This document shows positions 3,804 to 41,277 of a stretch of DNA of 64,000 nt, in pieces (position 1 is the stretch's first letter; each line of letters begins with the position of its first letter). Made by a program: the position numbers and the translations under genes. Location of the stretch: the NCBI GenBank assembly GCA_000004695.1, contig CM000151.3, positions 7,104,001-7,168,000 of the forward strand. The letters run 5' to 3'. A model generated the notes under the pieces. The model was given only the letters and a program-made list of their open reading frames with translations. It was not told where the DNA came from and did no database searches. This stretch comes from Dictyostelium discoideum (taxonomy: Eukaryota).

Positions 3804-6920
<3,117 letters not shown>

Positions 6921-7034
6921 GGAACCAATGGTTTTATTTTATTTTTTTATTTTTTGGAAGAAAAAAAAATGGAAAAATAAGAGTATGAAAAAAGAAACAC
7001 CCTTTGCTTTTCTCACCTTTCTAGTAAAAAGAAA

Positions 7035-7071
<37 letters not shown>

Positions 7072-7125
7072 GAAAGATAGGTTTTGCCTATCAGGCAAAG
7101 CTTTTGGTTTCCAGCTTATTTATTG

Positions 7126-7160
<35 letters not shown>

Positions 7161-7695
7161 CCCAGATTTATTAAGAATAAAATCAATAAAAAATATATGT
7201 ACATAAAAAAAAAAAAAAAACTTTAAAAGTAATTATTTAAACATTATTTGTTTTATTTTTTTTATTTATTTTTTATTTTTTCGTTTTATTTTTTTTATTT
7301 ATTTTTTATTTTTTTAGTAATTTTATTTAATATGTTAAATTTGGTTTGATTTAAAAATTCAAATTTCCAATTAGATTTGTTGAACTTCGTAGTGATGGTA
7401 AAATAATTTTTTTTTTTTTTTTTTTTTTTTTTCCAAAAAACTAATAATGAATTATGCCAATAGTGTGAAGAATGAATAAATTTAAATTTAAATCCATCAA
7501 CGTAATATTTACACATTCTTTGTTTTTTCCTTTTTTTTTTTCTTTTTCTTTTTTTCTTTTCTTTTTTTTTTGTTTTTTTTTTTTTTTTTTTAAATTTTAA
7601 TTTTTTAATTTTATTTTTTTTTATTTTTATTTTTTTTTTTTGTTTTCATTTTTTTTTATTTTTTTATTTTTTTATTTTTATTTTTATTTTTATTT

Positions 7696-7741
<46 letters not shown>

Positions 7742-8258
7742 TAATATAAAACGAATTAATAATATTAATTTTTCATAAAATTTTAACATTATTTTTTCAA
7801 TCCATTTTATAAAACAAAAATTAATAGAAGACACCTTATAGTAATTATTAAAATAAATAAAAATAAAAAAACAATTTAGTAGCGCAATAACAGTGTCACA
7901 AACAAATACCAATTAGTTTTTCTTTTCTATTTTTGTTTTTTTTTTTACAAAAAAAAAAAAAAAATAAAAATAAATAAAGAAAATAATAAATAGAAAAAAA
8001 AAAAAAACAAGCAAAAACAAAGAGATTAGAAAAAATCAAATTGAAAAAAAAAAAAAACCAATTAATTTGGACAATGCAATCTTGTATGGGCAATAAATTA
8101 TCAAATATTAGCATAAGTGGAACTTCAACAGTTTGAATTGATAAAGTTTAAATAATTAAAAAATCAAATTCATTCATCCTTTTTCTCATTACCTCATTAT
8201 TTCTCTTAAAAAAAAAAAAAACAAAAAAAAAAAAAAAAAAAAAAAAAAGTTTTATAGT

Positions 8259-8361
8259 AATCAAAATCATAAAAATCATAGTCATAATCATCATATCATA
8301 ATCATAATAATCATAGTCATAAAATCATATTCATAGTCATAATCATAATAATCATAATCAA
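8259..8361. repeat. degenerate (ATCATA/GTCATA)n minisatellite upstream of the NYN gene
   Basis: Visible tandem aatcata / agtcata units flanked by long A-runs. Confidence 0.7.
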
Positions 8362-8403
8362 AATAGAATAATAATATAAAAAAAAAAAAAAAAAAAAAAA
8401 AAC

Positions 8404-8453
<50 letters not shown>

Positions 8454-8462
8454 AAAATTAAT

Positions 8463-8507
<45 letters not shown>

Positions 8508-8532
8508 TTGTTTCACTTTCAAAGCAAACACA

Positions 8533-8917
8533 ATGAACTTAAGTGATAGTGACAATGATACTTTGATAGCATCGTGTTTTGACTTTATTGATGTCGATGA
8601 AAACTATGATAATTCAGAAGATGAAGATGAACAATATAGCAACTCATCTTATAATTCAATGATCCCATTCTTTAAACCAACAACACCAACATCAGTAATT
8701 CCATCATCATCTTCATCTTCTTCTTCATCATCATCATCATCATCTTCTTCTTCAACAACTGCAACAACTGCAACTGCAACCACAACAACCACAACAACCA
8801 CAACAGCAGCAAACAATGTTGATAAAAATAATAAACAATTGAATAATAGTTTAATAAACAATAATAGCAATAACAACAATAACCATAGCAGCAGCAACAA
8901 CATTAGTAAAAATAATA

Positions 8918-8971
<54 letters not shown>

Positions 8972-11300
8972 TTAATAATAATAATATTAATAATAATAAA
9001 AACAATGATTCTGATGATGATTTATTTCAAAATAGTAGCTCAAATTTTGAAAATAAAAAAAACAGAAGAAGAGAGAGAATTAATAATAATAATAATAATA
9101 ATGAAAGTACTTCCACCACATCAACCACAACCAGCACACTTCCAGTTACAGGAGCAGCAACAGCAACAAAATCAGCGGCAACAACAGGAGCGGTTACACC
9201 AGTTATTCAATCATTACAACAGTTTCAAATTAATAATGATGTTAGCCATTCACCATCCTACCACTTTCAAGATCCACTAAAAATTAGTAAACCAAAGAAA
9301 ACCACCACCACTACTACCACCACCACTACAACCTCCTCTAGCTCAGTTAATTCTTCATCCAACCCTTTAATTTTAACAGCCAATGAGAGAAAATCAAAAA
9401 AAGATCAAAAACCTCAACCTCAACAACAGGTTGCCTCTACAAGTTCAGATGCCTCTGCTTTTAAAATTTTAAAAAGAAATGATGATCCAATTGGTAAGTT
9501 AAATAGAATCAAGTATCATAATACTTTAACCATTAATACTAATCGATTATATTATATAGATCCAGACCAATTAAATAAACTTTTCAAACATGGAAACCAA
9601 TCTTCATCACCAACAATCAACCCAATTTTAAAGCAACAACAACAAACAAATACTAAATCAAATAATGATATTTCAAATACAGGTAATATTAACTATAATA
9701 ACAATGGAAGAAGAGAAAGACAATCAAGAAATAAACCACAAAATAGATTGAATTCAGTAAATAGTAATATTAATAACAACAACAACAATAATAATATTAA
9801 TAATAATATTAATAATAACAATAACAATAACAATAACAATAACAATAACAATAACAATAACAATAACAATAATAATAATAATAATAATAATGATGATGAT
9901 GATGATGGATTATCAAATCAAAACAATGGTATTGATAAAAATGAAAAACTAAAGCAATTTGGTAGAGTTTTTGGAGAATCACCAATTCATTATGATTTAG
10001 ATACGGTTACATTTTTACCATCAAATATATTTCAAAAGGGTGAAGTTGTATTGGTACCAAGATCAAGAGGTGGTTTCACTTATGCAAAAATCTATGAAGC
10101 ATCAGATTCAAATATTTGTCATAATGATCCAACAGTTCATCATCATGTTGTTCAATACCGTGCGGTTTATCCATCAAATGGTAAAAGGGATAATCTTTAC
10201 AAGGATTTATCAGCAATTTACTTGGGTAAATTAATACCAATGGAAAGATTACCACCAAATGTCAAAAAGTATACATTAACCCCTCCAAATGAGAGCTTTT
10301 CAATCATTGGTCAAAAAGCATCGGTAAGAGATTTACAGGGTATTTTATTCTCACCATTTTCAAAGTTTCATATGAATCAAATCGTATTGGTACCAAGAAG
10401 TAAAGGTGGTTTCACTTATGGTTGTATCGTTAAGGAGTGTAGAGTAACTTGTAAAGTCAATGATGTTAAACATGATGTACAAGGTCATCGTGTAGTCGTT
10501 GAGAAGAGTAAAGATCATACCGTTATCAAGGATTTAGCAATTGGTAATCTCGGTAAAATATTTACATCTGTTGAAAATAATCAATCATCACTTAATCCAT
10601 TGAATGGTTTAAATTTAAATAGTAATAATAATAATAGCAATAACAATAGCAATAATAATAATAACAATAATAATAATAATAATACAAATTTAGTTACAAC
10701 AAATTTAAATAATAATAATAATTTTAAAATTAGACATTCAATTAGTAATGATAGATCATCACGTGGTGGCAACAATAATTTACGTAGTGGTGGTGGTGGT
10801 AGCAACAATAGGGATCATAAAAAGCAATCAAAGGAAAAGAGAAAGCAAAATCAATATGATCAATTAGCTGCTGCAATGCTACAAGAAATTGTCGAAAGTA
10901 ATCCAAAAAATATTAATAATAATAATGAGGAAGAGGATGAGGAGGATGAAGAGAATGAGGATGATAATATTCAAGTTAATGAAGAGGAAGATGGTGAATC
11001 ATCTGAGGTGGATGGGCCATTATCATCTGAAAATGAAGAAGAACAAGAAGTTGATGGAGATGATGAAGATGATGGAGATGATGAAGAAGATGATAATGAT
11101 GATGAAGAAAATGATGAGGATAGTGAGAAAGAGTATGAGGTTCAGGATAATCAAGAAAATCATTCAAATGAAATTGAACAAGATTCTGATGATAATGATG
11201 ATGAAGATGATGATGAAGAAGAAGAGGAAATCTTATGGACAGGTCAAAAATTAAATACTCCAGCAGTTTCTTCTGTACCAGTAATTACTTCTCAACCATC

Positions 11301-11390
<90 letters not shown>

Positions 11391-11539
11391 GCAACTTCAA
11401 GCTAAACCCCCTGTTACTCAACAAACATATCAACAACAAAATCGTCAAACAATCCCACCTCAACAACAGGTTTCCCAAACTTTAGCTCAACAACCAAAAC
11501 CACAATCACAACCACAACCACAGCCACAAATATTACAGC

Positions 11540-11574
<35 letters not shown>

Positions 11575-12132
11575 CCAAAAGTTAAAGCAGGAATATTTCA
11601 AATGCCAGTTGATGCAGAAGTATTTACAGGTAAAAAAAAGAAATCATCAAAATCAACATTAATTATTATTGATGGACCAAATGTAGCAAAAAGAAATAAA
11701 TCTAAATCATTTTCAGTTTCATCATTAAAGAAATCATTAGATTATTATATTCTCAGAGGTTATGATGTAGTTGCATTCGTTCCAGAATCATTTGCATCTA
11801 GAAAACCACATAATGATCCAAAAAAGACATTTACTATGTTTGATTACAATGATTTGGCAGATGATTTAGTTGGACTTCAAAAATTGACAGATTCAGGTTA
11901 TGTTTGTTTAACACCAGCTCAAGATTATGACGATAGCTATACCATTCATTATGCTAAAAAGAATGGTGCTTGTATCGTCACCAATGATCGTTACAATGAT
12001 CACATTGAAAAGCAACCAAATGAAATTGAAAAAGCCAAAACTAGAAAATTCATTAGAGATCATTGTATTTCCTTTGCTTTTGTTCGTAATGAATTCCTTC
12101 CAAATCCAGATTTCAAATTTCCAACAACATAA
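8533..12132 (+). CDS. large protein with a C-terminal NYN/Zc3h12a-like ribonuclease domain and two about 45-aa repeats (VLVPRSRGGFTY / VLVPRSKGGFTY)
   Basis: 1199-aa ORF. The C-terminus (TLIIIDGPNVA...VVAFVPESF...CIVTNDRYNDHIEK) has the Asp-rich NYN/PIN-like signature of N4BP1/KHNYN/MCPIP family RNases. Poly-S/T/N/Q and acidic tracts lie upstream. Confidence 0.6.
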
Positions 12133-12544
12133 ATTTAGAAAATCAATTGAACTTTGATCATTTTTATCTCCACTTTCTCTCAATCAGTCTATTTTTTTTT
12201 TTTCTTCAACTTGTTTGGAAAATGAATGATTTTTTTTTAAAAGTAAAATTTCCCAACTAGCAAAATTTCCTCTTCTCAAAAAAAAAAAAAAAAAAAAAAA
12301 AAAAACAAAAACAAAACAAAAAAACAAAAAAACAAAAAAAAAAGAAAAAAAAAAAAACCAAAACTATTCTATGGCTTACTTTTTATATACAAAAATAAAT
12401 AAATAAATAATCTTGATATATTTTTAAAAATTTTAATATTTTATTTACATGTTCCTAAGTGTACAGGCATTATTTTACAAATGCGAAATTGTTAACTATT
12501 TTAATTTTTTTTTTTTTTTTTTTTTTGGATAAATATTCATTTGT

Positions 12545-13037
12545 TTAAGAAATGATTAAAGGGATTGAAATTGAAATTGGTTTTCTACTAATTGAGTCTT
12601 TGTATTTAAGCTCCAACTCTGCTTGTGTGCTTGAAAGAGGAGTGGATGTTGGCTCATAGTATATATAGAAAAGTTGGTGTTCTTGAGGACTTAATGGAAT
12701 TGTACCTGGTTTACTAGTTTCACATATATTTTGGTCTCCTCTAAGATATGGAATTTTGAAACTTCCACAATCTCCTTTAATCTGTAATTCTAAATCTACC
12801 AAATCTAATCCATTATTTGTAATTGTAATATTTGCTTTATTATTATTCTATTTTATAGAAAAAAAAAAAAAAAATTAATATTAAAAAAAAAGAAAAAAAA
12901 AAAACAAAAAAAAAAAAAAAAAAAGATAATAATTATTTTTTTTTTTATTTATTTTTTTTTATTTTATTTATTTTTTATTTACATACTTGGCTGAAATTTA
13001 ATTTGGTTGGTTCAGCTTGAATTAAAGAATTTTCCAT
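12545..13037 (-). CDS. small 2-exon protein (about 117 aa), possible MSP/PapD-like beta-sandwich
   Basis: Exon 1 12987..13037 (MENSLIQAEPTKLNFSQ; donor GTATGT) and exon 2 12545..12847 (acceptor tattttatag; continues NNNKANITITNNGLDLVDLELQIKGDCGSFKIPYLRGD...). Phase 0 is consistent. The fold assignment is a guess from its pattern. Confidence 0.45.
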
Positions 13038-13484
13038 TTTGTTTTGATAATTATTAGTAATTGAGGGTGTGGGTGTGTTAAAAAATAAAAAAATAATGAG
13101 GAAAAAGTGTTTATATAAAAATCAATTTAAAAAAAATAAAAATAAAAACAAAAACAAAAATAAAAAAAAAAATAAAAAAAAAAAAATAAAAAATAAAAAA
13201 AAAAAATAAAATTAAAATAAAATTTGTTTTTTATTAATTTTAAAAAAAAAAAAATTATAAAAATGGATTTTGAAATTTACTGTCAATTTATTTTCAAATT
13301 GAGCCATGAATAGAAAAAAAAAAAAAAAAAAAAAAAAATAAAAAAAAAAAAAATAAAAAAAAATTTTAGAAAATTGGTTTTTTTAGTAAACTTGAATATT
13401 TTTTTTTTTTTCTTATGAGTTTTTAAGATAATGTAAAAAAAAAAAAAAAGAAATTATTATTCAAGTTTATTAAAAAATGAATTT

Positions 13485-13519
<35 letters not shown>

Positions 13520-13655
13520 CAAACCCATGGGTTTATAAATTTCGATGATATCTCAAAACAATTTCAATTTTTTATTTATTTTTTTTTATTTTTTATTTTT
13601 TTTTTTTCTTTTTTTTTTCTGTATTTTTTACAAATCTAATTTTTGATCTTTTTCC

Positions 13656-13690
<35 letters not shown>

Positions 13691-13770
13691 CAAAATTATT
13701 TTTTTTTTTTTTTTTTTTTTTTTTATTTTTACAAAAATTTTAAATACACAAAAATTTTAAATAAACAAAA

Positions 13771-14096
13771 ATGTCATTCAGAGGAAGACCAAGTGTAGCT
13801 TCAAGAAGATTTGGTAGAGGTGGCTTCAGCAGACATGGTGTCGCACCAAACCAACAAAAAGATAATGATCAATCATTGGAAAGCATAAATGCTAGTATGG
13901 ATTCAATTAATAATATCAATGATATTAGAGGAATAATTATAAATTCAAAATTAAATATACCACTTTCCAAATTAATTTTAAAATCATCATTCAAAGATGA
14001 ATTTATTGTTTTATTTTTAGTTTTATTAAACACTGTTGGTAAGTTTTTTTTTTTTTATTTTTTATTTTTATTTTTTTTTCATTATTTAAATTAACT

Positions 14097-14135
<39 letters not shown>

Positions 14136-16184
14136 ACAAAAAAAGATTTACATTCAAATGCAAAGATTAATTTTTTAGTATCAACATTTGATCTTAAATT
14201 ATATGATTTATCAAAATCATTATTAGAGACAAATAAATATACATTTATAGAGATTTCAAAATGTTTAAAGATTATGGACTCAAAAAGAATGATTAAAATC
14301 TTAAATAAAAGATTAGAAGAAATTAAAAGTAATCATGAAAGAAAATTAAAAGAGAAAAAGTTAGCAATAGAGAAAAGTTTAGAACAATTGTCAGTGGATG
14401 ATAATGAAATTCAAATGAAGAAAGAAGAGAAAAAACAACAAGAACATAAGAGATATTTAGAGAAAGTTGAGAAAAGAAAGAAAAGAATTGAAGAGTTTAG
14501 TAAAAAAGTTGACCAAACAAAATCAAAAAAACAATATGCTTTAAAAAAAGTTTTAATTAAAATGAAAGAACAAAAGAAAGTAGAGAAAGTCGTAAAGGGT
14601 GATAAGGAGGTGGTTTATAAGAATCGTTATGAAAATGCAGTTAAATCTGTGGAGAATAAAATTAGAGAATTGGTATCCTACCAATACGAATCTGGATTAT
14701 CTGGTAATGTTATAGCCATTTTCAAAAAGTTTTTTAAACAAGTACCACGTTCAACATTGGAATACTTTGCCTATGGCCAACCAAAGGCTACTTGGCGTGA
14801 AATTGCCAGACTGTTACATTTGGGTCCAAAAGATCTTTGTGATGAAATTCCATGGTTCCTTAGTGTTATGTTTGGTGGAAGTGCTCCAGTTGGTACACGT
14901 GTTTATGAATTTGAAAAGGAATTAAAAGATCCATCAAAATTCACTAAAGAAAGAGCCATTGAATTGATTAACCAATTCAAACCAACCTATGCATTCCTTA
15001 GAAAGAATTTACCAGAATCATTATTCGATGGCGAAATGAAAGCAATGGTTGCAGAGTATGAAGAAATCGATGCATTAATTTGGTGGTTAAATGAATTAGG
15101 AAAGGAGGAAAAGGTCATTGAAATTATCATTAAACGTATTACCAGTGGTAAAGAGTCTTTGAAAAATGTTAGCATTGGTACACTATTAGAGAGATCAATG
15201 GGTCTAAGTCAAGATTCGCCATTGTTCAATTGTTTATTCCCAGAGATTTTAAAGAAAATGACTGAACAAAGAGAGAAATTCGTTTTACCACCACCAATTT
15301 CCATTTTTGGTGATAAATCTGGTTCAATGGATGTTGCAATTCGTTTAAGTAATATCATTAGTTTCATTATTTCATCTTTGACACCAGGTGCCGAGTTATC
15401 ATTTTTCGATTGTAAAAATGTTCCATCGCCAATTCCAGTGGATTCTTTAGAGAATCTTTTCAAATTAAAAGACTTGGTCAAAGCATCGGGTGGTACAGAT
15501 CCAGGTGTGTCAATGTATAAACTTTTATCTGAAAAAGTTGTTAAAAACTATATTGTCGTGGTTACCGATGAAGAGGAAAATGGATATAAACATGGTAGAT
15601 TTAGCGAGTTGTTCATTCAATATCGTAAAGAGGTTGCACCAAATTGTAAATTAGTTTTCATTTCATTCATTCCTCAATACTCTGAAGGTCAAATGGTCGG
15701 TGAGTTACGTAGAAAAGGTTTCGATTCTTCAACTTTAATTCAAATTCCTTTCGATGCAACAAATCCTGATGTTTCAAAAATCGATGGTATGCTTTCAAGT
15801 TTATCTTGTGAATCTGAACAATTCAAAGATCAATTGGACCTCCTTGTTACTATTCTTTCAACAGTTGGTTATAAAAATGGTTTTAAATTCATTAATGATA
15901 GAGCACCTCTCTTAATGAGATTCGATTTAAATATTCAATTAGGTATTGAAAATGTTTTATCTATTATTAAAACTAATCCAACTTTAGATAACTATCAATA
16001 TTTAATGGTTAAAAATAATTTAAATCGTTTACTTAAAATCTCTAAAGATAATAATGATTTGGTTTCTCTTGAAACTTTTAATAATATTCATAAAGAATTT
16101 TCAAAATTATCAAAAGATGATGGTATTCAATATCTTTTAAAATCTTTATCAAATTTGCAACCAATTTCTGTTAAAGATAATTAA
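13771..16184 (+). CDS. vWA-domain protein (MIDAS DKSGSM), Ro60/TROVE-like C-terminus, K/E-rich coiled-coil N-terminal region
   Basis: Exon 1 13771..14038 (MSFRGRPSVASRRFGRGG...; donor GTAAGT; phase 1) and exon 2 14146..16184, which continues in frame. The vWA segment ISIFGDKSGSMDVAI...ASGGTDPG...YIVVVTDEEENG resembles the Ro60 vWA/MIDAS region. Confidence 0.55.
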
Positions 16185-16523
16185 AAATTAAAAATAAAAA
16201 ATAAAAAAAATAAACAAATTTGTATTATTAATTTTTCTATACATTTTTTTTTTATTTTTATTTTTATTTTTTTTTTATTAAAAAATTTTTAATTAAATTT
16301 AAAATATATACAAATAATTAAAATGATATAAAATAATTTGTTTTTTTATTTTTTTCCGATTAAAAATTTCATCATTCTCATTTAATTCCCACATTCATGT
16401 GAAAATATTTTTCTTTTTTTTTTTTTATCTTTTTATCATTTTTTTTTTTTTTTTTTTTTTTTTTATATTTTATTTTTAATCAACAAGTAAAAATTACATA
16501 TCAAAGTAATAAAAATAAAAAAA

Positions 16524-17231
16524 ATGTCACAAAATTATACCTATTCAAAATTAAAGAAACCAAGTTATGTATCAGGTTCCAGTAATAAATCATCTTCACA
16601 TACAACATCGTCATCACCTTATAAAAAAAAAGAAATTGAACCAAAAGAAAACTATGAACCAATAACACCTGAAGGAGTTTATTTATATGATAAAGATTAC
16701 ACACATTTTGTAGTTCATTGTAGTAAATCATCATATAATGAATATATTGGTAGATATAATCCAAAATTTCCATCAACAAATAATTATAAATTTGGTAATC
16801 CATTTGTTGTAGGAAAAGATGGTGATCGTAATACAGTAGTTAAAAAATATAGAGATTGGATATTTTCACCAGAACAAAATGATTTATTTAATGCTGCAAA
16901 GGAATTGAAAGGTAAAATACTTGCTTGTTGGTGTTCACCTTTAAATTGCCATGGTTTTGTTTTATCTGAAATTGCCAATTCATCAATTACAAATAAACCA
17001 GAGCAAATATTACAACAATCTGAGGTAATATCTCAACAACCACAACAATCCCAACAACCACAACAAACACAACAAACACAACAAACACAACAAACACAAC
17101 CACAGCAACCACCACAACCAGTACAATCCCAACCAAAAATTCAAACAAGATCCTCTACAATGTCAACGTCAGATTTAAAAAAACCTTTGTTTGATGATAA
17201 GGATTTTCCACCTTTGGGAGGTAAAAAATAA
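16524..17231 (+). CDS. DUF4326-like domain protein with Q/P-rich tail (235 aa)
   Basis: ORF from the ATG at 16524. The core FVVHCSKSSYNEYIGRYNPKF...KFGNPFVVGKDGDRNTVVKKYRDWIF...LKGKILACWCSPLNCHGFVL matches the DUF4326 signature, which is mostly bacterial or phage (SxYDVYIGR...WGNPF...Y..W...L.GK.L.CWC.P..CH). Confidence 0.55.
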   Translation: MSQNYTYSKLKKPSYVSGSSNKSSSHTTSSSPYKKKEIEPKENYEPITPEGVYLYDKDYTHFVVHCSKSSYNEYIGRYNPKFPSTNNYKFGNPFVVGKDGDRNTVVKKYRDWIFSPEQNDLFNAAKELKGKILACWCSPLNCHGFVLSEIANSSITNKPEQILQQSEVISQQPQQSQQPQQTQQTQQTQQTQPQQPPQPVQSQPKIQTRSSTMSTSDLKKPLFDDKDFPPLGGKK

Positions 17232-17314
17232 ATAAAATTAATTAATTAATCATTCAATAATAAAATTTAAAAAAAGTTTTTAATGTGTGTTTTTGGTATA
17301 AATTTAGTATAACG

Positions 17315-17357
17315 AAAATGAGGTTTTTTATATATAAAATTAAAAAAACCTCATTTT
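17315..17357. other. perfect 15-bp inverted repeat (hairpin) with a 13-nt loop, 84 bp past the stop of the DUF4326 gene
   Basis: AAAATGAGGTTTTTT at 17315..17329 is the exact reverse complement of AAAAAACCTCATTTT at 17343..17357. Confidence 0.6.
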
Positions 17358-17500
17358 TAATTTAAACATCTAAATATGTGTCAAATAATCGTTTGTTAAA
17401 TTAATTAATTACGACACCCATTTTGTTGGGTATAAATATTTTATAGGATTTTTTTTTTTTTAATAACATCACTCAATTTGAGTGTGTTCTAGGAGAGTTT

Positions 17501-17540
<40 letters not shown>

Positions 17541-17544
<4 letters not shown>

Positions 17545-17677
17545 CTTGTTATTCTTATTTTTTTTATTATTATTATTATTATTATATTATTATTATTATT
17601 ATATTATTATTATTATATTATTATTATTATATTATTATTATTATTATATTATTATTATTATTATTATTGTTATAATT
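17541..17677. repeat. (ATT)n-based compound microsatellite ((ATT)4ATA periodicity)
   Basis: Visible tandem attattattattata units flanked by T-runs. Confidence 0.8.
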
Positions 17678-18640
17678 TTTTTTTTTTTTTTTTTTTTTTT
17701 TTATGAGTAGTTGGTGTTATATGAGCAGTATGGTATGAAGTGTTCCGGGATGTTTATGGTCATGAGTTTCGAGTTCCAGTTGTGGCTGAATTTTTCGAGT
17801 CTTCTTTTTATTGATGCGGTCCGATTGATTGACTCTCGGTTATCAGTGCATCTTAGTTCTTGACGTAGTTGTTTTTCTACTATCTTTCTTGTTCTATCCC
17901 ATTCGGCATCTCTCGCTTTTTTGATTTTATGAATTATTTGGTTCTCTGTTATTATTGTAGTGTTATCGTTGAATTTTATTTGATTTCTTCTGTACCATAT
18001 CGATTCCATAATGGCTCCTATCAGATTTGATGAGAATGGTGTGAGTAGTTTTCCGAGAACTTTTTCGCTCCATGGACCGTGGTAAGTGTTGTTGGAGTCT
18101 TTACAGACCTTTTGATAGATTGAGTCGATATTCTGTTTTATTGATTTGCATTCGAAGAAGATGTGCATAGACGATTCTTCTTCTTTACATGAGTGGCAAT
18201 TCTCCCCATGGTGTTTTGAAAGTGCCTTGAGTAGATATCTCCATGCTAAGTCTCTTCCTTTGATAGTTGTGATTGATCTGGCTTCTCTAAATGGTAGAAT
18301 TGGGTGATTAATGTTCTTTTGAATCAGTTTTTGACCTGTTGTTGGCTGGTGTTTGTTCCATCCCTTGTATTTGATATCCATCATGTTTCTATAGATTACT
18401 TTTAATTTTTGTTTGTTTTCGTATTTGGGTTTGACTTGGTTTAGTTTGAGAGTTATTCGCTCTCTTGGGTGGTGCAACAACTTCCAGGCTTTCCAGCATT
18501 TGATGTGAATCCTTGATAGTGAGTTTTCTTTTTCCGACTTCCAGACTTCCATATGTGGAGGGCAGTTCTGGTCGTCTTTTTCTCTGAGGTATTGTTCGTA
18601 TATCCATGCTTTCTGGGCATTGGATCTGGTTGCCATATTC
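17678..18640 (-). mobile_element. 5'-truncated non-LTR retrotransposon fragment (TRE5/DRE-like ORF2 C-terminus with CCHC-type Cys/His motif and A-tail)
   Basis: The 311-aa minus-strand ORF 17701..18636 is not AT-biased and contains HSCKEEESSMHIFFECKSIK, a Zn-knuckle-like motif found at the end of ORF2. Its 3' end is followed by A23 (T-run 17678..17700 on top). Its 5' end lies about 60 bp from the 5' end of tRNA-Ala, the classic TRE5 target position. Confidence 0.55.
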
Positions 18641-18698
18641 CAGAGTTCCAGTATTTTATAGGAATTCGAATACGACGTTCTTTATAAAAATCATCAAA

Positions 18699-18771
18699 GG
18701 GGATGTAGCTCAGATGGTAGAGCGCTCGCTTAGCATGCGAGAGGTAAAGGGATCGATACCCTTCTTCTCCA
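18699..18771 (+). tRNA. tRNA-Ala (anticodon AGC)
   Basis: GGGGATGTAGCTCAGATGGTAGAGCGCTCGCTTAGCATGCGAGAGGTAAAGGGATCGATACCCTTCTTCTCCA folds as a cloverleaf. It has the G3:U70 Ala identity pair, anticodon loop TTAGCAT, and A-box TAGCTCAGATGG and B-box GGATCGATACC. There is one T:T mismatch at 6:67. Confidence 0.8.
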
Positions 18772-19869
18772 TTAAATTTCTAGAGAAATTAAGATCGCTA
18801 GTTCGATTCCACTAGGAACTTACACTAAGATATTGAAACTCGGTAAATCACTATATTTGTTATTTAGAATTTATATCCGATTTTTGGGTTGTGTATTTTA
18901 ATGGATAAACGATCAATATTAAAAAAAAAAAAAAAATTTCCTATCCAGAACCCTAGAATAAACAAACATAATGGTTTTAATTTCCAACATCTGGGTTTGG
19001 ATCTGCAATGGACAGTATAGTCACCATCAAGTCTCCTTCGACCAATTTTTTGGGTAGTAACAATTTTATTATTTGATCAATCAACTGGATATTTAAAAAA
19101 AATAATAAAAAAAAAAATTATAATAATAACAGTACTATATTTTAAAATTAAAAGTATCTATTTATTTTAAATGTTTTATAATGTGTTTTATTATTTAAAA
19201 TTTTTTTTTTTATTATTATTGTTTTGCCTTTTATTACTTTCTTTAATTTTTGATTTTTAACCTTGGAAAAAAAAGTGAACAAATTTAATTGGACTAAATT
19301 ATTTGTTACTAAAACTTAAATTACTTTTTTTTTTTTATTATGTAGGACTATTAATTTTGTTTTATTTATTGAAAAAAGTAGCTTTTTCCAAAATTTTTTT
19401 TTTTTTTTTTTAAAAGTCCCAGTGTCATAATTTTTATTTTTTTAAATTTTTTTTTTTTTTTTATTTTTTTTTTTTTTTTTTTGCAAATAGTTATATATCA
19501 TATTACACAAATTGATTTAAAAAAAAAAAAAAAAAAAATTTAAAAAATTAAACACCCCCTATAGTGGTTTTTTTTTTTATTTATTTATTTAATTTTTCAA
19601 TTATTCATATAATTCACTCGATATTGTAACTTTTATTTCATTTTTTCATTTTTTTTTTAAATTTAATTTTTTTTTTTTTTAATAAAATTAATTTTTTATA
19701 TACATTTTAATTTTTTTATTTTTTATTTTTTTATTTTTTTTTTATTCATACCCCTTTATCTAAACGACTCACCCATATACAACAAAATTCATAATAATAA
19801 AAAAAAAAAAAAAAAAAAATAAAATAATAAAAAAAAAAAAAATCAACTTATTAATTGTTATTTTATATT

Positions 19870-22334
<2,465 letters not shown>

Positions 22335-22404
22335 ATAATAAAAAAAAAAAAAAAATTAATGGACATTTAAAATAAAAATATTCAAATACAATCTTTTAAA
22401 AATC

Positions 22405-22708
22405 ATGACTCTCTTTTGTAGGTTTTACTAAATTAAAAAAAAGTTTTTTTTTTTAGAATAATAATTAACAATTTGTATTTTTCTTTATAATTTTAAAATT
22501 AGCATCATTATCATCATTAAGCACTGGTTCTTTGAAATCAAGTGTTTCTTCAATTGAAACTGGTAGTTCAAGTGGTTCATTTGGTTCAAATGAAACATCG
22601 GGATGGGGTCACCATCATTGGAATAGTTGTCATCCATGTCCACCACCACGTCCAATTTGTCGTCCATGTCCACCACCATGTCGTCCAGTACCAAGATGTC
22701 ATCATTAA
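22405..22708 (+). CDS. hssA/2C/7E-like small Ser/Gly/Cys/His/Pro-rich protein (68 aa), 2 exons
   Basis: Exon 1 22405..22417 (ATGACTCTCTTTT = MTLF plus 1 nt; donor GTAGGT) and exon 2 22503..22708. The product is [21 protein letters not shown]...[35 protein letters not shown]. The track ORF 22485..22694(-) is its antisense. Confidence 0.55.
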
Positions 22709-22988
22709 AGTTTAATTTTAAATAAAATTAATAAATAGACCTTTAAAATGTTTGGAATTTAAATAAATAATTTTTCTTTTTTTAAAAAATATATCCAAAC
22801 ACATTGAATTTGATTTTGGAAAATTTACTACCAATAAAACTAATGATAATAAAATTCTTTTATTAACAAAATTTATTATTAAACAGAAATATAGAATGTA
22901 TTACTGATGCTCAAAAAACTGATGATTTAAAATATGTTAGAGAATGGGTTTATTCCTTTGTGAATCAACGTCCAATACATAATCCAAT

Positions 22989-23026
<38 letters not shown>

Positions 23027-23173
23027 CCTCGTCCTAATTTGGGATGTGCCATTGTGACCACTAAATCCATTTTCAATTTATTTCAACAAAGTTTGCAGGG
23101 TAAATTAAAAAATATAAATTGCATAGGAAGTTTATTTTTAATTAAATTTTTATATTTTTATCAAAAATCTATT

Positions 23174-23458
23174 TTAATATTTATAATGGCATCTTGGTTC
23201 TGGACGGCATGGTGGACATGGACGGCAAATTGGACGTGGTGGTGGACATGGATGACAACTATTCCAATGGTGGTGACCCCATCCAGATGTTTCATTTGAA
23301 CCAAATGAACCACTTGAACTACCAGTTTCAATTGATGAAACACTTGATTTCAAAGAACCAGTGCTTAATGATGATAATGATGCTAATTTTTATAAATTAT
23401 TTATTAATAAATTAAAATTTTTTTTTTTTTTAGGAAAAAAACTTACAAAATAGGGTCA
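23174..23458 (-). CDS. hssA-like small protein, inverted paralog of 22405..22708
   Basis: Exon 1 23446..23458 (ATGACCCTATTTT; donor GTAAGT) and exon 2 23174..23382. It is about 93% identical to the plus copy in inverse orientation. Confidence 0.55.
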
Positions 23459-23656
23459 TTTTAAAATTTTAATAGTTTCTTGTTTAAAAATTAGAGTTTG
23501 ATTTAATATTTTTTTTTTCTAATTTGGTTACAATTTATAGTTTTTTTTTTTTCTAAAAAAAAGAATAAAAAAAACAAATAATTTTTTAATTTTATTTTTA
23601 AAATCATACTTTTTGTTTTTTCATTTCTATTTTTTTTATATCAAAAAACTTAAACT

Positions 23657-23667
23657 CCCCCCCCCCC
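23657..23667. repeat. C11 homopolymer in AT-rich intergenic DNA
   Basis: A run of 11 C is visible here; such runs are unusual in this composition. Confidence 0.7.
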
Positions 23668-24288
23668 ATTATATTTTTCTATTTGACTTGTTATATTATT
23701 CATATGACTTGTTATAGTAATTATTATTATAAATGGGGCCTTTGGATTTTGAATTATCAAGAATTCTTAAAATAAAAAAGTCTTTAAAAAAAAAAAATAA
23801 AAAAAAAATTATTCATAAAATTAAAAAACTATAAAAACAAAAAATCAATTTTTAAAATATTAATTATAAATCAAAAAATAAAAACATGAGTATTTTCAGT
23901 AAGTATAATTTTTTTTAGAAATATTGTGTAAAATTTGTCATAAATATTTTAAAAATAATAATAAATAATTAATTACAATTATTCCTACAAAATAAATGTT
24001 TTAATAATTAAACCACTTTGTTGATCCCCCTAACATGGTGAATTTTTTAATTTCGAAATTTTTGCTCAAATTTTCCTGGATTTTACAATATTTAAATAAA
24101 TAAAATAAACTAAATTTAAACCCTTTTTTTAAATAAATATAGGTTCATTATCATCATTATCCACTGGTTCTTAATTGGGTGCTTTACATTTTATTTATTT
24201 ATATAACTCTAAAAATAAACCATTTTAAAATTTATTTTTATTATTAATATTTATTTATATTTAAAATTTATTAATATTTAATTTTAAA

Positions 24289-30739
<6,451 letters not shown>

Positions 30740-40625: not shown

Positions 40626-40840
40626 TTTTAAAATTAAAAATAAATTAAAGAAAAAAAAAAAGATTTAAAAAAATTAATTACACCTGTATTTATAGATTTT
40701 TATTTTTTTTAAATTTTTTCCAAAATTATCTTTTTTGAAAATCAATGTTTTTTAATTTTTTTTTTTTTTTTTTTAATTTTTAGTGTGAGATTTCCCATCC
40801 AAACTTTTTTTTTTTATTTTTTTTTTTTTTACAAAATAAT

Positions 40841-40924
40841 TATGTGTGCCGGGTTTCGATCCCGGGAATCGGTTAACGAAATGAAGCCCTGAACGTCACG
40901 CAATAACCACTCTGCCACACACTT
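40841..40924 (-). tRNA. tRNA-like gene with a long variable arm (type II; anticodon loop TTCAGGG, so Leu-CAG-like); imperfect stems, possibly a pseudogene
   Basis: The minus strand reads AAGTGTGTGGCAGAGTGGTTATTGCGTGACGTTCAGGGCTTCATTTCGTTAACCGATTCCCGGGATCGAAACCCGGCACACATA. It has A-box TGGCAGAGTGG, a T-arm CCGGG-ATCGAAA-CCCGG, a 16-nt variable arm, one A:A mismatch in the acceptor stem and one C:T mismatch in the anticodon stem. Confidence 0.45.
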
Positions 40925-41277
40925 AATTTTTTTTTTTTTTTTTTTAAATCGAAATTTTTATTATTTTTTTTTTCCAGATTATTTCTACTTAATCTTAGAA
41001 TCTTTGAGTTTTTTGGGAAATAAAAAAATAGTCAACAACCTCTCTTTTATATTAAATGAAAAAAAAAATTTCTAATTAATGGTTTTTAAGTTTAAATTCA
41101 ACATTAATTTTGGCAATCCAAAAAAAAAAAAAAAATTAATTTTTATTATTATTAGAAAAAAAAAAAAAAAATTTTTATTATTATTTTTTATTTAAATTTA
41201 ATTCGTTTATTTAATTTATAATAAAAAGTCGCCCAAATATATTAATGTTTTGTTTTGTTTTTTTTCTTTTTTTTTTT

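Follow-up and report, generated by a model that had tools for sequence, protein, structure and literature searches.

A 5'-truncated TRE5-type retrotransposon, most probably TRE5-B, upstream of a tRNA-Ala gene in Dictyostelium discoideum

Results

The tRNA-Ala locus and an element upstream of it

The window (the whole 64-kb stretch of DNA that was analyzed) is nearly identical to assembly GCA_054883475.1, with 99.7% identity across 17 kb. The original prediction placed a tRNA-Ala gene in it, flanked by retroelement debris. ARAGORN bears out the gene as a tRNA-Ala(AGC) on the plus strand, with an Rfam tRNA score of 58 bits, and it serves here as the integration landmark. The features of the gene and of the DNA upstream are as follows.

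17437..17448, no strand, left copy of the target-site duplication TATTTTATAGGA, identical to 18652..18663
17449..17461, minus strand, true poly(A) tail (A13)
17462..17507, minus strand, conserved 3'-terminal module TACAAATAAACTCTCCTAGAACACACTCAAATTGAGTGATGTTATT with stem-loop (46 nt)
17508..17544, minus strand, internal A37 run within the 3' untranslated region (UTR)
17545..17675, minus strand, A-rich spacer plus (AAT)n microsatellite within the 3' UTR, expanded relative to other copies
17676..17700, minus strand, A25 run immediately after the stop codon, internal and not the tail
17701..18651, minus strand, 5'-truncated TRE5-type ORF2: C-terminal 316 codons and stop (post-RT region and zinc knuckle)
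18148..18198, minus strand, CX2CX7HX4C zinc-knuckle motif CHSCKEEESSMHIFFEC
18652..18663, no strand, right copy of the target-site duplication TATTTTATAGGA, a 12-mer
18699..18771, plus strand, tRNA-Ala(AGC) gene
18706..18717, plus strand, A box of the tRNA-Ala gene
18750..18760, plus strand, B box of the tRNA-Ala gene
18801..18810, plus strand, external B box GTTCGATTCC, 30 bp beyond the tRNA-Ala gene

External B boxes have been described for Dictyostelium tRNA genes (PMC5911963). The one at 18801..18810 is kept at three further loci used for comparison below (L006, from strain ACTFIR; L007, from D. cf. discoideum; and L008).

The minus-strand frame is the end of a retrotransposon ORF2

The minus strand is open from 18651 to 17704 and then has a stop codon at 17701..17703. 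This frame has the C-terminal CCHC-like motif that the original prediction reported, in the form CX2CX7HX4C. The predicted protein is identical at 315 of 316 positions to residues 741-1056 of P0027, a 1056-amino-acid ORF2 protein that represents a cluster of 39 member sequences. The orthologous fragment at another locus, L005, is identical to P0027 throughout those 316 residues, and all protein matches of the fragment are Dictyostelium ORF2-like proteins. P0027 has an RVT_1 domain at residues 415-649 and a weak Exo_endo_phos match at residues 5-139. Together with the knuckle motif, these domains make it an ORF2 of the APE-RT-zinc-finger type. A Pfam search with the fragment alone detected no domain; it covers sequence past the RT core. 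What is left of the element is the 3' UTR and 316 codons from the end of ORF2, and it is therefore neither mobile nor a source of active protein.

Automated annotation calls genes on the orthologous locus (L005 11164..11847 and 11916..12453), as it might if the frame belonged to a host gene or pseudogene that merely resembles a retroelement. However, the frame is nearly identical to the C terminus of a multicopy, RT-bearing ORF2, and the element that carries it ends in poly(A) and is flanked by a target-site duplication. In addition, that element is missing from this locus in other lineages, and further copies of its family lie at unrelated tRNA genes. The host-gene reading is refuted.

Ends of the element

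We set the two ends of the element independently by homology. Position 18651 is the limit of similarity to ORF2 proteins. At the other end, the window was aligned with two other copies of the family, one in L002 and one in L003; each alignment ends at exactly 17449, and the flanks diverge past that point. Therefore, the 3' boundary is at 17449, and the tail is the A13 run. A search for target-site duplications found a perfect 12-bp repeat, TATTTTATAGGA, adjoining both of these ends. Thus, the element occupies 17449..18651 (1,203 bp, minus strand) and is 5' truncated. Its 5' end faces the tRNA-Ala gene, which starts at 18699, in a head-to-head arrangement. The homology limit and the duplication put the gap between them at 47 bp, rather than the approximately 60 bp first proposed. 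The A run after the stop codon was also part of the original prediction, in which it was an A23 tail. That run is present, but it is 25 nt long and internal. The A13 tail and the perfect 12-bp duplication are hallmarks of target-primed reverse transcription.

The 3' UTR is approximately 240 nt long in the window versus 138 nt in L002. The run equivalent to A37 is A27 in L002 and approximately A32 in L003. Both the L002 and the L003 copy also carry the 46-nt terminal module at the 3' end. The window has a single match to the core of this module, where none is expected by chance. The module is predicted to fold into an unusually stable hairpin (z = -4.35; 0 of 200 shuffles fold equally well). 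The stem is preserved in a related family (F2), with one compensatory pair.

The element belongs to the TRE5 type and is most likely TRE5-B

TRE5 elements integrate with the 5' end toward a tRNA gene and approximately 50 bp upstream of it (PMC3159450), and the reported distances range from 34 to 95 bp (PMC5006619, Table 1). The distance of 47 bp is within this range, and the orientation (element on the minus strand, tRNA gene on the plus strand) agrees as well. The independent family copy in L002 is arranged alike. It lies 48 bp upstream of a tRNA-Glu gene, head to head, and has an 11-bp duplication with one mismatch. Therefore, the call of a 5'-truncated, TRE5-like ORF2 3' fragment was right in kind, as the match to P0027, the position, the orientation, and the duplication indicate.

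To name the family, we compared 3' ends. The TRE5-A C-module was recognized from its published mutant positions C38, A35, C26, and T15, checked by eye (PMC3159450). In one family (F3, in L004), ORF2 is followed by a B-module and a C-module, which identifies F3 as TRE5-A. In another (F4, in L003), ORF2 is followed by a C'-module alone, which identifies F4 as TRE5-C, whose 3' end is a C-module approximately 78% identical to that of TRE5-A. The L003 copy of the window element's family was also considered as one long element with a TRE5-A-like ORF1. That was rejected: GATCGTTATA recurs four times in L003, and these are therefore four separate tandem insertions.

The family of the window element (F1) has neither a B-module nor a C-module at its 3' end. 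A search of the window for the C-module that allowed up to 3 mismatches had no match. The 46-nt module could be aligned to the C-module (47 of 60 ungapped columns), but the alignment was heavily gapped and not convincing. The lack of both modules excludes TRE5-A. TRE5-C is excluded by the lack of a C-module, and the terminal module in the window differs from that of F4. Set against the published TRE5-C values, folding energies for the terminal 51 nt did not discriminate. TRE5-B has been described as having no 3' B-module and no C-module (PMC3159450). Besides TRE5-A, it alone among the D. discoideum TRE5 elements has a full-length reference-genome consensus (PMC5006619, Table 1). Its ORF1, which is missing from the window copy, is approximately 25% identical to that of TRE5-A.

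Therefore, the family is most likely TRE5-B, a name reached by elimination of the other TRE5 families and by architecture. Naming by architecture leaves some room for a different TRE5-type family, whether TRE5-A, TRE5-C, or an unnamed one, in which last case F2 would be TRE5-B. Two families, F1 and F2, lack the B- and C-modules; they are 55% identical to each other, and each lies 46 to 48 bp upstream of tRNA genes. However, besides the exclusion of TRE5-A and TRE5-C, the F2 proteins come from strain ACTFIR only, and D. cf. discoideum has 70% relatives. In the genome that is nearly identical to the window, the family present is F1, with a 1056-amino-acid ORF2. This fits the single intact TRE5-B published for the reference strain (PMC5006619). 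We consider a family other than TRE5-B unlikely. Our reading of 17449..18651 is a 5'-truncated, nonfunctional D. discoideum TRE5-type non-LTR (L1-like) retrotransposon, most probably TRE5-B, and we give it a probability of roughly 0.88.

Other lineages have different elements at the same tRNA gene

The upstream insertion is present in the window and in L005 and absent from L006, L007, and L008, each of which has a different element at the same tRNA gene. None of these three provided a clean empty-site allele, as each has other insertions there. An empty site is predicted to have a single TATTTTATAGGA joined directly to ATTCGAATACGACG, reading ...GGGTATAAATATTTTATAGGAATTCGAATACG....

We also compared the downstream side. 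In L007, a CTAATAA duplication accompanies a 66-nt poly(A) insert; the duplication is ATATTGAAAC for a 128-bp insert in L006 and TTTGGGAAA for a 355-bp insert in L008. These three inserts are 60 to 105 bp beyond the tRNA-Ala gene, in the orientation of the gene. The stretch from the external B box to a conserved anchor, TTTTAATTTCCAA, is lineage specific. In D. citrinum, the anchor is approximately 55 bp past the tRNA gene, whereas in the window it is 205 bp past it. Therefore, the DNA between the gene and the anchor looks inserted.

The downstream blocks in the window

Three blocks were distinguished downstream of the tRNA-Ala gene in the window.

18836..18940, plus strand, block ending in A16; present in L005 and L006, D. 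discoideum specific, no TRE match
18941..18975, plus strand, remnant orthologous to the 66-nt poly(A) insert of D. cf. discoideum, which is flanked by CTAATAA
18976..19090, plus strand, GC-richer block of unassigned origin; conserved in L007

The first block is in L005 at 100% identity and in L006 at 84% and has no counterpart in L007 or L008. The third block is kept in L007 and missing from L006 and L008. It also has a partial paralogue on the minus strand of L001 (8209..8446). A search for further copies of the first and third blocks in approximately 170 kb of other loci and in the window recovered only the orthologues and this one paralogue.

The original prediction took the downstream blocks to be TRE3 debris. 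TRE3 elements lie 14 to 305 bp downstream of tRNA genes (PMC5006619). The first block starts approximately 65 bp past the tRNA gene and is in its orientation, with A16 at the distal end, as for TRE3-A to TRE3-D. The A16 run (18925..18940) is indeed there, and so is a GC-richer sequence at 19000..19080 (GC content, 0.35). The rest of the claim did not hold up as well. The sequence at 18841..18924, which had been called non-AT-rich, has a GC content of 0.24, only slightly above the local background of 0.14 to 0.17. Nor is the A16 run exceptional: A or T runs of at least 16 nt occur 91 times in the 64-kb window (53 A and 38 T), or approximately once per 700 bp. The sequences at 18841..18940 and 19000..19080 had no similarity to seven ORF2 families or six ORF2 3' ends. 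The blocks had no match to ORF2 families F5, F6, and F7 in particular or to two TRE3-type 3' UTRs, from F5 (in L009) and an F6-like element (in L003). We found no target-site duplication around 18836..18940 or 18976..19090, either in the sequence or in cross-lineage alignments.

Some other identities were considered and rejected. Rfam found nothing in 18976..19090, and its folding was no better than that of shuffled sequences, so it is not a candidate noncoding RNA. An 8-residue match of the same block to the C terminus of an F2-like ORF2 (E = 0.2) was unsupported by DNA shuffling tests and by a profile of ORF2 C termini. Similarity of 18836..18940 to the L006 insert was marginal, with equally high scores from 10 of 500 shuffles and from 3 of 477 random genomic 100-mers, and the block was not accepted as a copy of that insert.

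A TRE3 origin of the downstream blocks is therefore unproven. Even so, decayed TRE3-type debris is a plausible origin, because stacked, lineage-specific poly(A) inserts are found at the site in other lineages. The first block may be a poly(A) retroelement with severe 5' truncation that lies in the TRE3 position and orientation. For 18836..18975 as a whole, we lean slightly toward older poly(A) inserts, one or two in number, that were heavily truncated and are stacked at a TRE3-type target window. This reading competes with one in which the blocks are fast-evolving intergenic DNA or regulatory sequence of a neighboring gene, and A16 is a homopolymer grown by slippage. The frequency of long A/T runs, the low GC content of the 18836..18940 region, and the lack of a duplication would all fit that. 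So would the lack of similarity to the ORF2 families, ORF2 3' ends, TRE3-type 3' UTRs, and ORF2 C-terminal profile, as well as the conservation of 18976..19090 between D. discoideum and D. cf. discoideum. However, the anchor spacing gives this DNA an inserted look, and three other inserts at the same site have poly(A) tails and duplications. Furthermore, parts of the 3' end of 18836..18940 and of 18976..19090 recur at an unrelated locus (L001 8126..8446). We regard ordinary intergenic or regulatory DNA as a possible but less favored explanation.

The short inserts could also be copies of a short nonautonomous, SINE-like element that uses TRE3 machinery, rather than 5'-truncated TRE3 elements. 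The candidates are 18836..18940 in the window, the 66-nt insert of D. cf. discoideum, and the 128-bp insert of ACTFIR, all 55 to 105 bp past the tRNA-Ala gene. There are three or four independent inserts of merely 66 to 128 nt at one locus, and none of the short inserts matches the two recovered TRE3-type 3' UTRs. The window, L001, L006, and L008 share a weak 3' signature, ATGGATA[AC]AC...GAT...TC(C)AATA, which precedes poly(A). However, extremely 5'-truncated copies are a normal product of target-primed reverse transcription, the comparison with TRE3-type 3' UTRs covers at most two of the four TRE3 families, and the similarity statistics are marginal. The L008 insert is also longer (355 bp), with an internal A-run architecture that resembles a TRE 3' UTR. 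To our knowledge, no SINE has been described in Dictyostelium. A SINE-like element is improbable.

Discussion

The element upstream of the tRNA-Ala gene resembles TRE5-B in its position approximately 50 bp upstream of a tRNA gene with the 5' end toward that gene, in its APE-RT-zinc-finger ORF2, and in its poly(A) end. It differs in being only the last 1.2 kb of what is a 5,971-bp element. With TRE5-A (formerly DRE), it shares target position, orientation, mechanism, and a 3'-terminal stem-loop after an internal A run. By eye, the two terminal modules also share the short motif TACAAATAAA...CTAG...CTCAA. However, the TRE5-A ORF2 is just approximately 42% identical to that of the window family, and it is followed by B- and C-modules that are absent here. 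The C-module of TRE5-A has an essential stem-loop (PMC3159450), and the hairpin in the window, being unusual and kept between families, parallels it. TRE5-C has the same target position and lacks a 3' B-module; its ORF2 leads directly into an A run and a terminal module. That module is a recognizable C-module variant ending in ...GCAACTAAAAATTGCGTTATTCCATTC, unlike the one in the window, and the TRE5-C ORF2 is approximately 43 to 46% identical to that of the window family. More distantly, mammalian L1 and other APE-type LINEs also use target-primed reverse transcription and have frequent 5' truncation, poly(A), target-site duplications, and a CCHC motif at the C terminus of ORF2. L1 does not target tRNA genes, whereas TREs have strict position and orientation specificity.

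Published work on TRE5-A suggests how this copy might have arisen; the homology, 3' end, duplication, geometry, and lineage distribution were established here. Contacts between the ORF1 protein and TFIIIB would bring the preintegration complex to a tRNA gene bound by Pol III. The ORF2 endonuclease would then nick the DNA approximately 50 bp upstream of the gene, and reverse transcription of the poly(A)/3'-hairpin end of the RNA would start from the nick. Synthesis presumably stopped approximately 950 nt into ORF2, leaving the element 5' truncated, and staggered cleavage of the second strand would have produced the target-site duplication.

It has long been established that TRE5 and TRE3 integrate at defined positions beside D. 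discoideum tRNA genes, approximately 61% of which are associated with a TRE (PMC5006619). The locus described here is one further example, and it does not bring a conceptual change. For annotation, it supplies the true element boundaries, 17449..18651, and it identifies the ORF as transposon debris even though genes have been annotated automatically at the orthologous locus. The insertion is polymorphic among Dictyostelium lineages, and it could serve as a strain marker. Finally, one orthologous tRNA gene with different elements acquired independently in four lineages is a compact case of target-site reuse.

A TRE5-type ORF2 fragment upstream of tRNA-Ala

The window has a very high AT content and contains two tRNA genes. 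A tRNA search located tRNA-Ala(AGC), which scored 58 bits in Rfam; no other Rfam family was found in 17300..19500. The following features are relevant here.

18699..18771, plus strand, tRNA-Ala(AGC)
18651 to 17704, minus strand, open frame upstream of tRNA-Ala, with its stop codon at 17701..17703
18148..18198, minus strand, zinc knuckle CX2CX7HX4C (CHSCKEEESSMHIFFEC) within the open frame
40840..40925, minus strand, tRNA-Leu(CAG), 86 nt

The minus-strand frame had protein matches in Dictyostelium only. A wider protein search showed it to be identical at 315 of 316 positions to residues 741-1056 of P0027, a 1056-aa protein representing a cluster of 39 sequences. P0027 has an RVT_1 domain (415-649) and a weak endonuclease/exonuclease/phosphatase match (5-139). 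The match to its C terminus, together with these domains, shows that the frame is what remains of a 5'-truncated non-LTR ORF2, namely its post-RT region and zinc knuckle. Near-identity to a long ORF2 also suggests that the insertion is fairly recent. The orthologous fragment in another D. discoideum assembly (GCA_054883475.1, locus L005), whose contig is 99.7% identical to window positions 10000..27252, matches P0027 over the same 316 residues with 100% identity. In L005, automated annotation predicts two protein-coding genes (11164..11847 and 11916..12453) that cover the TRE5 fragment and run across the tRNA gene; both models are almost certainly spurious. We found no other TRE ORF2 similarity in the window, and so tRNA-Leu(CAG) appears to be unoccupied.

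To define the element, we used two copies of its family, at loci L002 (9956..10824, 84% identity) and L003 (10729..11552, 94%). Both align to the window as far as 17449 exactly. All three copies have the same 3' UTR plan: stop, A-run, (AAT)-rich stretch, long internal A-run, terminal module, and final poly(A). Across them the terminal module reads TAC[A/T]AAATAAACTC[T/C]CCTAGAACACAC[T/C]CAAATTGAGTGATGTTATT. The window copy is arranged as follows.

17676..17700, minus strand, A25 after the stop codon
17545..17675, minus strand, spacer and (AAT)n microsatellite
17508..17544, minus strand, internal A37
17462..17507, minus strand, terminal module
17449..17461, minus strand, final poly(A), A13

The A-run after the stop codon, which the original prediction took for the tail, is therefore internal. 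At the other end, ORF2 protein homology stops at 18651. Target-site duplications had been proposed as a check, and the 12-nt TATTTTATAGGA is present directly outside both limits (17437..17448 and 18652..18663). The chance of such identity at fixed positions is ~1e-6, as estimated from base composition. Because the DNA and protein homology limits adjoin this duplication, the element spans 17449..18651 (1203 bp), which leaves 47 bp between its 5' end and tRNA-Ala. The (AAT)n microsatellite is much longer than in the L002 and L003 copies, from which we infer that it expanded inside the transposon UTR after insertion. The whole 3' UTR is ~240 nt in the window versus 138 nt in L002.

The element is head-to-head with tRNA-Ala. 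The independent L002 copy has the same orientation, 48 bp from the 5' end of tRNA-Glu, with an 11-bp duplication containing one mismatch. TRE5 elements insert ~50 bp upstream of tRNA genes with the 5' end towards the tRNA (PMC3159450), at 34-95 bp in the reference genome (PMC5006619 Table 1), and both copies agree with this in distance and orientation. The ORF2 match, duplication, position, and orientation show that the upstream fragment was correctly predicted in kind, and we put the probability that it is TRE5-type above 0.95.

Assignment to a TRE5 family

An all-against-all comparison of Dictyostelium ORF2 proteins gave seven groups, with the window element in F1. Published TRE5-A C-module mutants are at C38, A35, C26, and T15, counted from the 3' end (PMC3159450). 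All four positions fit, by eye, a C-module of ...GAGATCTAGCATCTCAAGGAGAAGCAACTAATAATTGCGTTATCCAATTC. Group F3 (P0034) has the 3' order ORF2, A-run, B-module, A-run, C-module, and this succession of modules after ORF2 identifies it as TRE5-A. Group F4 (P0032 and P0036) has ORF2, an A-run, and a C-module variant without a B-module, which is the published description of TRE5-C. These F4 proteins, from strain ACTFIW, are long (926 and 1069 aa, respectively); reference-strain TRE5-C has only an 879-bp partial consensus and no intact copy (PMC5006619 Table 1).

Neither module was found in F1. TRE5-B is likewise described as lacking both. Besides TRE5-A, no other D. discoideum TRE5 has a full-length consensus; that of TRE5-B is 5971 bp, and one of its 25 copies is intact (PMC5006619 Table 1). 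The window element is probably TRE5-B. The caveat is group F2 (P0002, P0003, and P0008), a fourth TRE5-type ORF2 family that is 55% identical to F1, where the literature has only three in D. discoideum. F2 also lacks a C-module; its terminal hairpin module is similar to that of F1, and it lies 46-47 bp upstream of tRNA-Leu (L001 9851..11609; L004 11625..12939 and 14701..15248). It was found in strain ACTFIR only, with 70% relatives in D. cf. discoideum.

Polymorphism and reuse of tRNA targets

The neighbouring DUF4326 gene was used to reach orthologous loci. L005 shares the F1 insertion with the window, whereas D. discoideum ACTFIR (L006), D. cf. discoideum (L007), and D. citrinum (L008) lack it. 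At the same tRNA-Ala, the L007 insertion is a 536-bp element that ends in a C-module; it lies 46 bp upstream and is flanked by a 15-bp duplication (GTTCATTAGAAATTT). L008 has a short piece ending ...GTTATCCAATT, then poly(A). L006 has a different, complex insertion nest beginning 14 bp upstream. Within its 6923..8372 region are ~105-bp direct repeats (7184..7290 and 7432..7536) and, near 7400..7425, a tRNA-like fragment. A TRE5-A B/C-module is also present, facing the opposite way from what is expected for tRNA-Ala. None of these three loci gave a clean empty site.

Repeated insertions at one tRNA reused one duplicated sequence, GATCGTTATA four times in L003 and TATACATTCT three times in L001; such tandem insertions have been noted (PMC5006619). 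At tRNA-Lys(UUU), L003 7699..11950 holds four TRE5-type insertions, each bounded by GATCGTTATA, in the order TRE5-A-like ORF1 element, TRE5-C fragment, F1 fragment, and TRE5-A B/C-module fragment. A TRE3-type fragment (6477..7508; 6462..7523 with its 15-bp duplication GGAAGATGTCTTTAT) is 80 bp past the same tRNA. Locus L009 has a nearly full-length F5 element (5150..11450), closest to reference-strain protein DDB_G0291958; unexpectedly for a TRE, neither ARAGORN nor Rfam found a tRNA gene in the 8 kb examined.

Sequence downstream of tRNA-Ala

The downstream block 18841..18924, with its A16, had been predicted to be TRE3 debris, and 19000..19080 a possible second fragment. GC content of 18841..18924 is 0.24 versus 0.14-0.17 nearby. 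The A16 is unremarkable because the 64 kb contain 91 A or T runs of at least 16. Neither block resembled the seven ORF2 families, six ORF2 3' ends, the F5 3' UTR (L009), or the 3' UTR of the bona fide TRE3-type insert in L003 (6477..7508). Neither matched a profile of ORF2 C termini, and no flanking duplication was found for either.

Lineage comparison, by contrast, points towards insertion. The anchor TTTTAATTTCCAA is ~55 bp past the tRNA in D. citrinum versus 205 bp in the window. L005 and L006 have a counterpart of window 18836..18940, and L007 and L008 do not. An extra 128-bp poly(A) insert in L006, with ATATTGAAAC on either side, is directly proximal to this block. In L008 a poly(A) insert of 355 bp is flanked by TTTGGGAAA, and in L007 one of 66 nt lies between CTAATAA copies, its remnant aligning with window 18941..18975. 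The newest insert is closest to the tRNA, and all have the tRNA orientation and terminal A-runs, a pattern expected from serial TRE3-type integration. The insert 3' ends have in common a weak motif, ATGGATA[AC]AC...GAT...TC(C)AATA, with marginal statistics. TRE3-type debris at 18836..18975 is plausible but unproven. The more distal 18976..19090 is kept in L007, is missing from L006 and L008, and has a partial paralogue in L001; it gave no Rfam RNA-family match and no folding signal.

An external B box (GTTCGATTCC, 18801..18810) is kept in all lineages compared. The T-stretch terminator directly 3' of tRNA-Ala is CCATTTTAT or CCATTTTTAT in L006, L007, and L008 and is broken up in the window and L005 (CCATTAAATTTC). 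Past the gene, four or more consecutive T's first occur in the window at 18881..18885, 110 nt downstream, and the broken terminator might permit Pol III read-through.

Integration and the 3' terminal module

TRE insertion at tRNA genes is already well documented, and this insertion adds nothing new to the phenomenon. Its anatomy comprises 5' truncation, poly(A), duplication, position, and orientation. By analogy with TRE5-A experiments (PMC3159450 and PMC5911963), ORF1 protein would touch TFIIIB on a Pol III-loaded tRNA gene, the ORF2 endonuclease would nick ~50 bp upstream, and the RNA 3' end would be the site of reverse-transcription priming.

The terminal hairpin of the window element has a folding z-score of -4.35 (0/200 shuffles fold as well), and its stem is kept in F2 with one compensatory base pair and one added pair. 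It is analogous to the TRE5-A terminal stem-loop, which is essential for retrotransposition (PMC3159450). The folding signal and stem preservation are consistent with a putative recognition role. A short core, TACAAATAAA ... CTAG.A ... CTCAA, is common to the terminal modules of F1 (window 17462..17507), F2 (L001 about 11540..11588), and the TRE5-A C-module (L006 about 8230..8310), each preceded by an internal A-run. These common features hint that the "C-module" architecture may predate TRE5-A instead of having been acquired by it.
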